From Candidatus Micrarchaeota archaeon (GTDB taxonomy: Archaea > Micrarchaeota > Micrarchaeia > Norongarragalinales > SBBD01), in NCBI GenBank assembly GCA_018819225.1, contig JAHJQN010000002.1, forward strand, positions 913 to 64,912: 64,000 nucleotides of DNA, given 5' to 3'. The translations under genes and the position numbers were made by a program. This document shows, in pieces, positions 1-4,156 of this stretch. A model generated the notes under the pieces. The model ran no database searches. It was not told the DNA's origin and saw only the letters and a list, made by a program, of their open reading frames with translations. Within the stretch, counting starts at the first letter, position 1. Every line of letters begins with the position of its first letter.

Positions 1-1263
1 AAGCTCTCTCGCTTTGCCATCATAATCTTCTGCACGGTGGAGAGTGTTTTGCTGGACTATGCCTCCGCGCCCGTCGCCGACTATTGCCATATATGCCTTC
101 GCGATTTTGACTAAATCAATTTCCTTGTCTATGCCGAAAAAGCATTTTTCGGCGACTTCTCTTTTCATTCGCTCTAATTCAGAGCTTCCGCGATACTTCT
201 TGCTGTTTTCCATTTCGCGCCAGACATGTTCAAGCGCGTAAATCAAGAACCCACCAGAGCCGCAAGCAGGGTCGAAAACCCGTTGTCCGGGCTTTGGATG
301 CACTAACTCGATAGCGGTTTTGACGACTTCGCGGGGAGTAAAGAACTCGCCCTTTTCACCAACGAGTTTGCTTTCTGCAAAGACTTCAAAAGCATCGCCC
401 ACTACATCTTTGTCCGTCTTCAAGAGGCTGTATCGTTCAAGTTCGCCTACCGCATATGCTACTGATTTCGCATCGAGTTTAATTTCTTCGTTTGCATCAA
501 AAACGCCGTCTCCGACTAACTCTGCTTTAACTTCTGAAAACAATGTTTCGATGCTGGCTTTCACATCCTCCGGCTTGTCTCTAAAGCCTACCTTGAACCT
601 CGGGGGCTTGTCAGTGTAATATTTTTCGTCCCAAATCTTGCAGAAAATCAGGCGCGTAAGTTCGTTTCCAAGTTTTTCTCGGCGGCTTATGTTGGTGTTG
701 GTGTAAAGCGTGTTCAACATGCGTCCGAGTATTCCTTTAAGGTTCTTGGCGGGGATTAGGTCTTTCTTGGAGAGTTTGCCTATGTCTTCAAATGTTTCCC
801 CTTTGCGTGGGATTTGAAAGATGTAGTCAGGCTTGATTTCTCCGGTTTGCAGGTCTTTGTAGATATACCCTATTTCTTCCCCGTTTGTCCAAACTCCCCA
901 TTCACAGGAGGAGGCGGACATGTAGCTCATTAGTTGGCGCACTCCATCCTTGCGTTCCCGTCTTTTCGTTTCGACGATACCGAAGATATCGCGGTTTTGG
1001 TCGTGCTTGGATTTGTCGGCTGTTTTGTAAATTACGATGTCCGCAAAGTCCGTTTCTCCCTTCGGTTTTGTTTTTGAACCGCGCTGGATTTGGACTTCAA
1101 TATCCATTTGTCCGAGTTCGTAATCGTAGTCATCATTTAGGGTTCTCTCATATGCCTGCCTAACTTTTTCTTCTGGTTTTCGTATGTCCACCGGCTTGCC
1201 AGTAGCGAAGTCGTAATCATAGCCTTCTTTCAAAGCTGGTTTTGAATCAGAGGCAGAGGGCAT
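1..1263 (-). CDS. Fused restriction endonuclease (HsdR_N-like PD-(D/E)xK) / N6-adenine DNA methyltransferase, type IIG/IIB-like; C-terminus beyond the left edge
   Basis: Not in the ORF track because it has no stop in the window. Manual translation from ATG 1263: MPSASDSKPALKEGYDYDFATGKP...PEEKVRQ...FADIVIY...IVETKR...QLMSY (nuclease), then GEFFTPREVV and motif I FDPACGSGGFL (methyltransferase). Confidence 0.85.
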   Translation of the reverse strand, partial: MPSASDSKPALKEGYDYDFATGKPVDIRKPEEKVRQAYERTLNDDYDYELGQMDIEVQIQRGSKTKPKGETDFADIVIYKTADKSKHDQNRDIFGIVETKRRERKDGVRQLMSYMSASSCEWGVWTNGEEIGYIYKDLQTGEIKPDYIFQIPRKGETFEDIGKLSKKDLIPAKNLKGILGRMLNTLYTNTNISRREKLGNELTRLIFCKIWDEKYYTDKPPRFKVGFRDKPEDVKASIETLFSEVKAELVGDGVFDANEEIKLDAKSVAYAVGELERYSLLKTDKDVVGDAFEVFAESKLVGEKGEFFTPREVVKTAIELVHPKPGQRVFDPACGSGGFLIYALEHVWREMENSKKYRGSSELERMKREVAEKCFFGIDKEIDLVKIAKAYMAIVGDGRGGIVQQNTLHRAEDYDGKAREL

Positions 1264-1270
1264 GAGTGGG

Positions 1271-1474
1271 TTACAGCGTATGCCTTTTAGAACTTTTCGA
1301 TTGCCCTGTTCCGCTGGAAATGCTTACTTTGACGAGGCTTCCGATGAACGGAGCGAGTTTAGGATTATGGATGCTTATAGAGCCATAACGATACTCTTGT
1401 AGCCCTGATTTTGTATTCTTTCGGTGCGTCTTTTCCGAGACTTTGAGTTCAAGTTCCAGTATTGGTTTAGCCAT
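1271..1474 (-). CDS. Small basic transposon-associated protein, possible regulator
   Basis: Likely start MAKPILELELKV (ATG 1474). Divergent from the transposase and 7 bp upstream of the R-M gene on the same strand. Confidence 0.5.
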   Translation of the reverse strand: MAKPILELELKVSEKTHRKNTKSGLQEYRYGSISIHNPKLAPFIGSLVKVSISSGTGQSKSSKRHTL

Positions 1475-1479
1475 ACTTC

Positions 1480-1533
1480 TTTCTACGGTAGAAGCATTTA
1501 TATACTTTGCCATCCATATTTCTACCGTAGAAG
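1480..1533. promoter_or_regulatory. Two palindromic operator-like sites flanking a TATA box in a divergent promoter
   Basis: TTCTACGGTAGAA (1481-1493) and TTCTACCGTAGAA (1520-1532) surround TTTATATA (1497-1504). Confidence 0.65.
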
Positions 1534-1539
1534 AAAAAG

Positions 1540-2766
1540 GTGGTCGAAATGGAAATGCGTCAAATTCGTGGGCTGGAAATCGCTCGCCAAAAGCAGGTCA
1601 AGCCGACTGAAAACGGTTGGTTCGTCAAGTCTCAAAGCGGGGCTGGCAGCTACCGCGTGGATGAACTCTTTAACTGCAATTGCCCCGATAGCCAGAAGAG
1701 ACAAGCTACCTGCAAACACGCTTTCGCAGTCCGGTATTTCTTGCAGGTGGAAAAAGAGACTGCGACAGGTGTGCAAGTCGAAAAAGTGCGGATTACCTAC
1801 AAGCAGGCTTGGAAAGCCTATGATGCCGCCCAGACGCAGGAAATCAAGCTGTTTGACGAACTTCTAAAGGATTTGGTTCAAGGCATTGATGAGCCAGCGC
1901 AGGCATTCGGAAGACCGCGCCTTTCTTTGAGAGAGACTGCCTTCTGCTCAATCCAGAAGGTCTATAGCCAACTATCTTGCCGCCGTGCCGTTTCACTATT
2001 TGGCAACGCGGTAGAGCGCCAGCAGATTACGCACAAACCGCACTTTTCGGCGACTTCAAGGCTATTGAACCGCCCAGAAATAACGCCAATATTGCACGAG
2101 CTAATCCGCGTAACCGCCGCTCCACTAATTGGGGTCGAAACGGATTTCGCCGTGGATTCAAGCGGTTTTAGGACTACTTGTTTCGGGGCATACGCCGAAC
2201 AGAAGTATGCCTTGAACCGTGACCACAAGTTCATCAAGGCTCATGCCATCGTGGGGGTAAAGACGAACATCATTACGGGAGTAGAGGTCTTGGAGGGAAA
2301 CAGCGCGGATTGCCCGCAGTTGCCGGTTCTCGTTGAAAAGACCGCCAACGGTGGCTTCACGGTAAAAGAATTGAGCGCCGACAAGGCTTACAATTCAGCC
2401 GACAACTACAACGCCGTAGCCGCCATAGGTGGGCAAGCGTATATCCCGTTCAAGGAAAACGCCACAGGGCAGTCTCACGGCTTGAAATACCGCCTGTGGC
2501 GCAAAGCCTTCCACTACTTTCAGCTAAACTCCCAAGAGTTCTATGAGCATTACCATAAGAGAAGCAATATCGAGACGACTTTCGGCGCGGTCAAAAAGAA
2601 GTTCGGCGATACCTTGAAATCCAAGAACCCGAAGGCGCAAGAAAACGAGCTATTGTGCAAGCTGATTGCCTACAACATAACCGTCTTGATTCACGAAATG
2701 CACGAACTCGGCATCAAACCCGATTTCAGTAGCCAAAGTCCGGCGGGTGTCGCTAATGTCGCTTGA
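1540..2766 (+). CDS. DDE transposase (IS5 family, IS903-like core) with N-terminal SWIM zinc finger
   Basis: SWIM CNCPD...CKH; DDE motifs AVDSSGF, SADKAY, YHKRSNIETTFGAVKKKFG. Confidence 0.9.
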   Translation: MVEMEMRQIRGLEIARQKQVKPTENGWFVKSQSGAGSYRVDELFNCNCPDSQKRQATCKHAFAVRYFLQVEKETATGVQVEKVRITYKQAWKAYDAAQTQEIKLFDELLKDLVQGIDEPAQAFGRPRLSLRETAFCSIQKVYSQLSCRRAVSLFGNAVERQQITHKPHFSATSRLLNRPEITPILHELIRVTAAPLIGVETDFAVDSSGFRTTCFGAYAEQKYALNRDHKFIKAHAIVGVKTNIITGVEVLEGNSADCPQLPVLVEKTANGGFTVKELSADKAYNSADNYNAVAAIGGQAYIPFKENATGQSHGLKYRLWRKAFHYFQLNSQEFYEHYHKRSNIETTFGAVKKKFGDTLKSKNPKAQENELLCKLIAYNITVLIHEMHELGIKPDFSSQSPAGVANVA

Positions 2767-2790
2767 AAGTCAGACTTTAGCTACAAAGCT
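2729..2790. repeat. Terminal inverted repeat plus subterminal repeats
   Basis: GTAGCCAAAGTC (2729-2740), GTCGCTAATGTC (2749-2760), and inverted copy GACTTTAGCTAC (2773-2784) within the terminus 2773-2790 (reverse complement AGCTTTGTAGCTAAAGTC). Confidence 0.6.
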
Positions 2791-2809
2791 GGCCGTTTCC
2801 GTGAAAAAA

Positions 2810-3469
2810 TCAGATGATGCGTTTGTTCGAAAACGCGCCCTTCGCGTATTCGTATTCGATGAATCGGTCGAACGGAATCTCCAGCGCTTGCACTTGCTCT
2901 TCGTTTAAGCCATCGAGTTCCATGACGATGGATCGCAAACTGTTTCCATGCGCGACCACGAGCACGTTCTCGCCTTTTTTCAAGCGTGGCAGGATGCGAG
3001 ACTGAAAGAATTTCAGCGTTCTTTTAGCGGTGTCCGCCAGATTTTCGCCTCCGGGAGGCCGAACGGTGAAGCTCCGTCTCCATAAGTGCACTTGCTCTTC
3101 CCCGTATTTTTCCTTCATTTCCTTCTTGTTCAATCCCTGGAGTTTCCCATAGAACCGTTCGTTGATCGCTTCGCTCAAGTGCACGGGTATTTCGTCGTCA
3201 CGGGGCGCATGGGCTTCCCATTTTCCGCCGTGCTCGAACACCACCGTCTTTCCGTTCGAGAACCCGGAGCACGCATGCAGCAAGGTTTCGTGCGCTCGGA
3301 TCAATTGGGAAGTGAACACGATGTCGAACGAATAATCCTTCAATTTCTTGGCCACGTTCAACGCGTCTTTCACGCCTTCACGCGCCAGCGGCACGTCCAC
3401 CCATCCCGTAAACAGGTTTTTCACGTTCCACGTGGACCGTCCGTGCCTCAATAAAACGAGTCGTGCCAT
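2810..3469 (-). CDS. gpmA: 2,3-bisphosphoglycerate-dependent phosphoglycerate mutase
   Basis: LLRHGRSTWN, FTGWVDVPL, NERFYGKLQGLNK, WRRS, PPGGE, AHGNSLR. Confidence 0.93.
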   Translation of the reverse strand: MARLVLLRHGRSTWNVKNLFTGWVDVPLAREGVKDALNVAKKLKDYSFDIVFTSQLIRAHETLLHACSGFSNGKTVVFEHGGKWEAHAPRDDEIPVHLSEAINERFYGKLQGLNKKEMKEKYGEEQVHLWRRSFTVRPPGGENLADTAKRTLKFFQSRILPRLKKGENVLVVAHGNSLRSIVMELDGLNEEQVQALEIPFDRFIEYEYAKGAFSNKRII

Positions 3470-3505
3470 TCTTAATCGCCGTTAGCGTCTACGCCGCTAC
3501 CGCTT

Positions 3506-4156
3506 TTATTTGTTTTCACGCGAATGCATCTTTCCCACGAAATGCTTTTGTTGGATGTGACAGGTGTCATTGATGACCGTGACGCGCACGCGTTTGTTGC
3601 GAATACTCAACCGGTTGATGCACGCGTTGTGCTGCCGGAACACGAAGCTTTTTTGGATGGGTAACCCCAACAAACCGGAAAGAATCATGCGATTCGTTCC
3701 TCCGTGGGCCGCCACGAACACGGTATCATTCGCATGCTGTTGAACGATTTTTCGAATGACTTTCATGGCGCGATGACGGACTTCATTCCAGCTCTCTCCT
3801 TTCTCCGGCTTGTAGTGGTGGTCGAGAATGGCGTCGGCTTCACTTAAGATTCCGGGATACTTTTGAAGCTCCCGGCCGGAAAAACCTTCCGCAATACCGA
3901 AACTGCGTTCGTTTAACTCTGAAAAACAATGTAAGCGCAGGCGTTTGTGGTATTTCAATACTTCTTTGGCGGTTTGTTTCGCCCGATAGAGGTTGCTGCA
4001 GTAAGCGGCATCAATGGGTTCGCGCGCCAGTTTTTTCCCCAGATCTTTCGCCTGGCCGATCCCTTCCTTCAACAGGCTGGTTTCCAGCGATCCCTGCACT
4101 CTCCGGTCTACGTTGTATTTTGTGACGCCGTGTCGCACCAAGATCAATTCCGTCAT
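3506..4156 (-). CDS. Histidine phosphatase family protein
   Basis: LVRHG, LNERSFG, GES, AHGG motifs. Confidence 0.88.
   Translation of the reverse strand: MTELILVRHGVTKYNVDRRVQGSLETSLLKEGIGQAKDLGKKLAREPIDAAYCSNLYRAKQTAKEVLKYHKRLRLHCFSELNERSFGIAEGFSGRELQKYPGILSEADAILDHHYKPEKGESWNEVRHRAMKVIRKIVQQHANDTVFVAAHGGTNRMILSGLLGLPIQKSFVFRQHNACINRLSIRNKRVRVTVINDTCHIQQKHFVGKMHSRENK

Follow-up and report, generated by a model that had tools for sequence, protein, structure and literature searches.

Restriction-modification (R-M) genes are known to be mobile, their vehicle being usually unclear. In the accessible passages of their 2010 report, Furuta, Abe and Kobayashi (PMC2853133) described R-M genes bordered by imperfect inverted repeats and by a short duplication of the target, the corresponding site being empty in a relative; one of these units, from Neisseria, combined a type IIG gene with a transposase-like remnant. 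Among insertion sequences (IS), IS903 measures 1057 bases and the elements of its group, about 1 kb long, carry one gene (PMC12670165); a 9-base target duplication is 'expected for the IS903 group' (PMC10376468) and IS903 may use more than one transposition pathway (PMC7986276), as stated in the portions of these three papers at hand. Here we analysed a 64,000-nucleotide stretch of a Candidatus Micrarchaeota genome (hereafter the window; G000:C8:913-64912; the assembly comprises 8 contigs and 1.37 Mb). Its positions 1-2790 are very probably the right part of an R-M-carrying unit transposon of about 4.4 kb, which belongs to an archaeal IS5 branch with IS903-type ends and whose left remainder lies beyond the first base of the window.

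The element resembles IS903 and IS102 in its DDE_Tnp_1 transposase with a Y-2-R-3-E-6-K signature, in its terminal repeats of about 18 bases starting with (A/G)GC and in its 9-base duplication; the terminal repeats may resemble IS903's own repeat as well. By contrast, the IS903 transposase has about 300 amino acids, whereas the present one has 405 and an extra N-terminal SWIM finger, and the element is about 4.4 kb long and contains three passenger genes as well as repeated motifs next to its ends, its transposase falling short of the NCBIfam IS5 cut-off. Mutator-like (MULE) transposases carry a SWIM finger too, so that both combine a DDE transposase with a CxCxnCxH finger; here, however, the transposase is a DDE_Tnp_1 protein of the IS4/IS5 type and the finger is N-terminal.

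Among cargo-carrying elements, the tIS of ISfinder usage, as presented in the available passages of PMC7986276, have one transposase, one pair of inverted repeats and passenger genes inside, as does the present element, but they are single members of otherwise cargo-free families, whereas all 17 bounded elements considered below carry cargo, which differs between close copies. Composite transposons of the Tn903 type also use an IS903-type transposase to move cargo, with a 9-base duplication (PMC12670165, same portions), but they have two full IS copies around the cargo in place of one transposase gene and one pair of ends. The units of Furuta and colleagues share with the present element the R-M cargo, the imperfect repeats, the target duplication and the empty site; in the passages of PMC2853133 at hand, however, they are bacterial, have 8-base duplications, lack an intact transposase and are moved by something that the authors left unexplained, whereas the present element is archaeal, contains an intact transposase of a defined family and follows a pattern that recurs across this family. 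In the literature accessible to us, no description was found of SWIM-bearing IS5 elements or of R-M-carrying IS5-type archaeal transposons, and the word 'passenger' was absent from the available passages of a 2026 archaeal IS survey (PMC13343696); ISfinder and paper supplements may hold named relatives. Taken singly, the element fits a known kind, the IS5/IS903-related passenger-carrying transposon. What is new is the pattern of the family, namely constant cargo, mostly R-M, modular exchange and a putative dedicated small regulator.

Ends, target duplication and empty site

The original prediction, made from the window alone, had seen an IS903-like terminus on the right side only, and this proved correct: with up to 3 mismatches allowed, the 18-base terminus occurred once in the window, at 2773-2790 (0.04 expected). 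A left inverted repeat within 1263-1540, between the R-M and transposase genes, would have spoken against the prediction; neither the longest 25 of 132 inverted pairs nor the terminus search contained an arm matching the terminus there. The prediction had further proposed to look upstream of the window for a matching repeat and for a duplication of the right flank. When the whole assembly was searched with up to 4 mismatches, the terminus was found at 8 places, three of which are tied to this transposase family: the terminus in the window, the right end of a 5'-truncated copy on contig C2, and C6:173018-173035, with 2 mismatches. The C6 repeat directly follows the same nine bases, GGCCGTTTC, that lie immediately beyond the right end in the window, so that a perfect (9/9) duplication stands directly outside both ends.

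No sequence overlap joins the C6 and C8 contig ends. The end of C6 nevertheless contains the final 46 codons of a reading frame that is cut off by the contig end. The encoded fragment aligns to the C-termini of the closest R-M homologues (P0121 and P0122), and in a related locus (L093) it aligns 237 bases after residue 725, the point at which the C8 part stops. The fragment is therefore read as the R-M C-terminus and the R-M gene as bridging an assembly gap of about 235 bases, which gives an element of about 4.4 kb (438 bases on C6, about 235 in the gap and 3702 on C8). From left to right, its order would be: left inverted repeat, a 74-amino-acid zinc-ribbon open reading frame (ORF), an R-M gene of about 850 codons, a small gene of 67 codons, a control region, the SWIM-DDE transposase gene and the right inverted repeat (Table 1). 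With four genes, one pair of ends and a single transposase, this is not a simple transposase-only IS of about 1 kb; the features of a unit transposon or tIS are all present, namely one transposase, a target duplication and passenger genes enclosed by a single pair of ends. Nor is it a composite transposon, as only one full copy occurs in the genome, the other matches being the 5'-truncated C2 copy and distant paralogues on C1 and C5.

Contigs of three sequencing runs holding parts of this DNA were compared with C8:1-4000. In run X1, the probable source of the assembly, a 51-base contig begins with 21 bases that equal C6:172988-173008 and continues with the 30 bases of C8:3703-3732, with one GGCCGTTTC, and 0 of its 21 31-mers occurs in the assembly. 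As it joins both flanks with a single GGCCGTTTC, this contig represents the empty site and indicates that the insertion is polymorphic in that sample. The depths in the same run, 9.3 for the empty-site contig, 7.65 for the element contig (C8:919-3732) and 16 for the flank contig (from 3703), fit a mixture of filled and empty alleles. Together with the matching repeat and the identical nine bases beyond the R-M gene, the empty site places the small gene, the R-M gene and the zinc-ribbon ORF within one element, in agreement with the proposal that the small divergent gene and a nuclease-methyltransferase lie inside a single-transposase transposon. Relatives having the R-M gene beside gpmA without the transposase would have contradicted this proposal, and none was found; the only clear gpmA orthologue among the relatives (G008, 65% identity) has other neighbours on both sides and is thus uninformative on an empty site in relatives.

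Table 1. Features of the element; positions refer to the window unless a contig is named
Feature	Position	Strand	Description
Right-hand part of the element	1-2790		2.8 kb
R-M gene, 5' part	1-1263	-	first 421 codons; open to the contig start, 725 codons; resumes at G000:C6:173316-173455 after a gap of about 235 bases
Small gene	1274-1474	-	67 amino acids (conserved form), residues 1-53 conserved; oriented divergently from the transposase gene; 8 bases ahead of the R-M start codon
Divergent control region	1481-1532	.	perfect 13-base palindromes TTCTACGGTAGAA (1481-1493) and TTCTACCGTAGAA (1520-1532) flanking the TATA-like TTTATATA (1496-1503)
Transposase gene	1549-2766	+	405 amino acids from ATG at 1549; 408 from GTG at 1540
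Two subterminal end-motif copies	2725-2771	+	..GTAGCCAAAGTC and ..GTCGCTTGAAAGTC; in inverse orientation to the terminal copy; overlapping the transposase gene at its 3' end
Right terminal inverted repeat	2773-2790	-	AGCTTTGTAGCTAAAGTC, read from outside; ...CAAAGC(T/C) end common to relatives
Target duplication, right copy	2791-2799	.	GGCCGTTTC
Target duplication, left copy	G000:C6:173009-173017		GGCCGTTTC
Left terminal repeat	G000:C6:173018-173035		AGCTTTGTAGCAGAAGTC; 16/18 identical to the right end; 438 bases from the C6 end
Zinc-ribbon ORF	C6 left end		74 amino acids; between the left repeat and the R-M C-terminus

Transposase, control region and R-M gene

The transposase gene matches Pfam DDE_Tnp_1 (E 4e-24), and its frame is intact with all catalytic residues present. 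Residues D203, D278, E342 and K349, together with Y335 and R338 of the Y-2-R-3-E-6-K signature, are invariant in 34 of 34 relatives, as are C43, C45, C55 and H57 of an N-terminal CxCx9CxH motif. A DDE transposase with an N-terminal finger, which had been noted as a SWIM finger and is probably of this type, is present. The window protein's own match to PF04434 (SWIM) is sub-threshold (16.2 bits against a Pfam cut-off of 19.6, E 0.0076); 27 of the 34 relatives match this model at E<=0.01, the best at 2.7e-6. One may speculate that the finger contributes to target choice or to end recognition. The closest annotated bacterial transposases belong to the IS5 family, with about 25% identity and an alignment restricted to residues 88-376, and one of them, a 306-amino-acid protein with DDE_Tnp_1_5 and DDE_Tnp_1 matches, gave no SWIM match at E<=0.1. 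The AlphaFold model (mean pLDDT 84) has its best fold matches in the ISCth4 and Tn5 transposases, and a comparison of the transposase profile with PDB sequences returned nothing at E<=0.1. At least 4,382 homologues were obtained at E<=0.001 among 8,000 scored candidates; the closest ones, like the related loci, are from Micrarchaeota, and in a sample of 401 genomes of the phylum, 67 contain the transposase (G202 included).

The end motif is repeated. On C6, the left end contains three direct copies of a 12-14-base motif spaced 18-20 bases apart, and an own variant of the motif is repeated inside the left end in 13 of 14 other elements, the exception being the C5 element of the same genome, in which the second copy is degenerate. 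A repeated motif of which each element has its own variant fits transposase-binding sites that co-vary with the transposase, and the two subterminal copies near the right end are probably extra binding sites. Either the SWIM finger or the helical region that follows it may read these sites.

Homologues of the small gene occupy the same divergent position in L029 (60% identity), in L008 (37%) and in the C5 element, and the family is rare, with 4 relatives among 1.84 billion representatives. The layout of two palindromes around a TATA-like box (TTCTA-N2-3-TAGAA) is kept in all three of these loci, and of the five occurrences of the strict palindrome motif in the genome, three are at the window and C5 modules. 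The small protein matched nothing in Pfam, NCBIfam or PADLOC, its Atlas scores were at most 0.83, AlphaFold gave a hairpin and a short helix (pLDDT 77.7 for the best model, 49-60 for the other four), and Foldseek returned no PDB structure at E<=0.001. From its position and the palindromes, we infer that it may be the element's repressor and may act on its transposase gene as well as on its cargo operon. In the same place, further members of the transposase family have a ribbon-helix-helix-like, an AbrB-like or a zinc-ribbon gene, as judged from the translations and, for the zinc ribbon, from a Pfam scan. It should also be noted that a 186-base contig of run X2, from a different groundwater study, shows no differences from window 1407-1592, which spans the start of the small gene, the control region and the start of the transposase gene.

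Within the window, the R-M gene product matches Pfam HSDR_N_2 and N6_Mtase; over the 725 residues available on the contig, the scores are 64 bits for HSDR_N_2, 121.9 bits for N6_Mtase and 47.6 bits for Eco57I. The D...ExK and NPPF motifs are legible in the translation and kept in the homologues P0121-P0123, and the homologues measure 877-910 amino acids. PADLOC placed its MTase_II and MTase_I models far above the IIG models, and about 79 residues of the protein are unassembled. The gene appears to be type IIG-like, encoding a single chain with nuclease, N6-adenine methyltransferase and specificity parts. Its closest genomic relatives (60-66% identity; L092-L098) are from Saccharibacteria, Patescibacteria, Dehalococcoidia and one archaeon, a distribution that suggests between-domain transfer among groundwater organisms, and the two closest proteins, P0121 and P0122, lie on metagenome contigs of 6.2 and 4.3 kb. 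Neither the transposase nor the small gene nor the zinc-ribbon ORF was found within 5 kb of the R-M relatives (0 of 80 genome loci), and the G+C content of the cargo is 0.43-0.47 compared with 0.51-0.53 in the flank; these two observations point to the capture of a travelling R-M gene. In run X1, the pieces of this region are of unequal depth, 6 for C8:1-678, 3.9 for 699-939 and 7.65 for 919-3732. The unequal depths may be due to gene variants within the sample and may also explain the break of the assembly inside the gene.

Related elements and rival explanations

Ends were sought at 22 loci related to the transposase gene as a 9-base duplication combined with an 18-base inverted repeat, from 8 kb upstream to 1.5 kb downstream of the gene. 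At 14 of them, ends of the (A/G)GCTTTG type (AGCGTTG in L068) were found with perfect 9/9 duplications and repeats identical at 13-18 of 18 positions, and a control with one arm reversed gave 1 match. L075 and a second pair in L083 were dropped as chance-like, having AT-rich or non-matching ends and an imperfect duplication. Narrower scans recovered little: within 700 bases upstream of the transposase gene, inverted repeats were clearly above shuffled sequences at 0 of 14 loci (L026 tied its highest shuffle); up to 3 kb upstream, this was the case at L025 and L028 only, of 12 loci, a pair in L029 that exceeded its shuffle maximum by one point not being accepted; and a right-end scan limited to 400-450 bases past the gene yielded only 3-4 of 22 loci. 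L025 and L026 are one element present in two metagenome records, with a 19-base perfect repeat and the duplication GGAAAGAAA, and L028 has a 15-base repeat and a right end that coincides with the contig end, so that no duplication is visible. The 14 scanned loci, L025/L026, L028 and the element of the window thus make up 17 bounded elements of 2.6-7.3 kb.

The original prediction had proposed tabulating the cargo of SWIM-DDE homologues. Cargo beyond the transposase is present in 17/17 bounded elements, and in 11 of them the repeats enclose DNA methyltransferase or R-M genes. Besides the type IIG-like gene of the window element, these are N6_N4_Mtase with GIY-YIG (L087), EcoRI_methylase with GmrSD_N/HNH and also NYN (L068), HSDR_N_2/N6_Mtase/Eco57I with Methylase_S (L069), Eco57I/N6_Mtase (L070 and L083), N6_Mtase with Methylase_S and also DUF3800 (L081), N6_N4_Mtase with AIPR and SocA_Panacea (L080), N6_N4_Mtase fused to Mrr_cat (L082), HNH with a D12 methyltransferase (L084) and a C-5 methylase with an NgoPII endonuclease (L086). 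The cargo of L071, L074, L077, the C5 element, L025/L026 and L028 has no clear Pfam family (FtsL_2 is below cut-off in L074). At L029, where the left end was not reached, an N6_Mtase/Eco57I gene, a fragment of a specificity subunit and the small gene described above are ordered as in the window. A 97-amino-acid ORF inside the R-M-carrying element of G376 (L084:5997-6287) has a weak match to a TATA-binding-protein repeat (E 0.0044, below cut-off).

At 14 transposase places, from 13 genomes, a PF02384 (N6_Mtase) match lies no more than 5 kb away, compared with about 0.95 expected by random placement, the pairing being made by eye among the matches listed, with 62 further PF02384 matches and G202 outside the count; the Poisson figure for this co-location is overstated because related genomes are not independent. 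Direct evidence of cargo exchange comes from two copies in one genome (L080 and L081 in G047), which are 84% identical along 1190 bases of the transposase gene, 86% identical in 50-63 bases of either end and otherwise without anything in common, that is, a constant backbone with unrelated cargo.

According to the explanation that we regard as very probable for the window element, the transposase would bind the 12-14-base motif repeated in both ends, make 9-base staggered cuts in the target and move the whole unit, as the IS4/IS5 type of the protein and the example of IS903 suggest. The small protein would bind the paired palindromes around the shared TATA box and so regulate expression in both directions, that of the transposase gene and that of the operon formed by small gene, R-M gene and zinc-ribbon ORF. 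The R-M gene would protect the host from foreign DNA and might in addition penalise loss of the element by post-segregational killing, since type II R-M systems are known to kill cells that lose them.

Several points weigh against this explanation. The two halves of the element sit on separate contigs, and the R-M gene has an unassembled stretch of about 235 bases, which makes the integrity of this gene and the exact length of the element provisional. The empty site is documented by a single 51-base contig, which could come from a sister strain and whose run, as the probable source of the assembly, does not count as independent evidence. No second full copy is present in the genome, which means that there is no direct sign of recent copying. 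The best NCBIfam model for the transposase, the IS5 model NF033579, is reached at 125.6 bits, under its cut-off of 140, and the small protein has no DNA-binding fold recognisable by Atlas, AlphaFold or Foldseek. Within the family, 8 of the 22 related loci have no accepted ends, several of them being limited by contig ends, and many homologues lie on contigs of 1.3-1.5 kb and could be cargo-free copies.

The alternative that survives best is a real insertion that has become a fossil, the filled and empty sites distinguishing co-existing strains after an old event and the transposase being now immobile. The single full copy in the genome and the two differences among the 18 positions of the repeats are in line with this alternative, and the event cannot be dated from contig data. 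Against it stand the open transposase frame with all its catalytic residues, the perfect 9/9 duplication, the identity of the 186-base contig to window 1407-1592 in a run of another study and the many independent perfect duplications in relatives, and we consider it unlikely. Much less probable still is that the link between the transposase family and R-M genes reflects the mere clustering of mobile and defence genes in islands, with no cargo relation. Defence genes and transposases do generally co-occur in islands, the related genomes are not independent, and L085 and L072 have an R-M or methyltransferase gene upstream with no ends found; but 11 elements enclose their methyltransferase or R-M genes within the repeats, each element being counted here as flanked by its own perfect 9-base duplication, and the genes just outside the left end of L087 encode ribosomal proteins. 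Finally, a simple IS of 1.3-1.5 kb (transposase with or without the small gene) inserted beside a resident host R-M gene is hardly credible: although IS903-group elements are about 1 kb long with one gene (PMC12670165, in the portions at hand), the contigs of many homologues measure about 1.3 kb and only one terminus is in the window, no left repeat was found between the R-M and transposase genes, the matching repeat and its identical 9-base flank are both located past the R-M gene, and nothing of the segment is present in the empty-site contig.

Beyond the unit transposon of the window, we give an even chance to the broader proposal of an undescribed archaeal family of IS5-derived unit transposons. 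In such a family, a defence module, mostly R-M, would be the normal state and would be swapped on a constant set of transposase, ends and small repressor; the elements would spread R-M genes among ultra-small groundwater organisms, in whose tiny genomes R-M might act as an addiction module. For an R-M cargo, an intact transposase of a defined family, ends, a duplication and an empty site are found together here, and the same vehicle recurs in many Micrarchaeota genomes with different R-M and other defence cargo, which offers a concrete and testable system for the travel of defence genes in very small archaeal genomes. The natural variants of ends and transposases lend themselves to the study of end recognition by a SWIM-bearing IS5-type transposase, and the element is a candidate compact cargo-carrying transposon for archaeal genetics. 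For annotation, the locus is a warning that contig breaks can conceal the other end of such elements.

Other copies in the genome and neighbouring genes

Three further members of the transposase family are present in the genome. One, on C1 (G000:C1:186345-187283; L091), is a distant paralogue with 42% identity and a zinc-ribbon N-terminus, for which no ends were found within 9 kb; its divergent small gene reads as a ribbon-helix-helix protein. The C2 copy (G000:C2:10559-11429; L002:1162-2160) is truncated at its 5' end, 68-72% identical and devoid of the SWIM part; it retains a right end, AGCTTTGCTCTTAAAGTC, and adjoins a large helicase-like ORF. On C5 lies a second cargo transposon of 3,786 bases (G000:C5:32521-36306; L090:205-3990), whose repeats start with GGCTTTGCCTCTA and whose target duplication is TTCTCTTGA. 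At 41% identity, its transposase carries a zinc ribbon (CxxC...CxxC) at the N-terminus where the window protein has the SWIM finger, its small-gene homologue has 61 amino acids and is accompanied by the same type of palindrome, and its cargo consists of two genes (337 and 226 amino acids) with no Pfam or PADLOC match.

To the right of the element, the genes at 2810-3469 and 3506-4156 (-) of the window both read, from their translations, as histidine-phosphatase or phosphoglycerate-mutase proteins with an RHG motif near the start, and the element is located 19 bases beyond the stop codon of the first.

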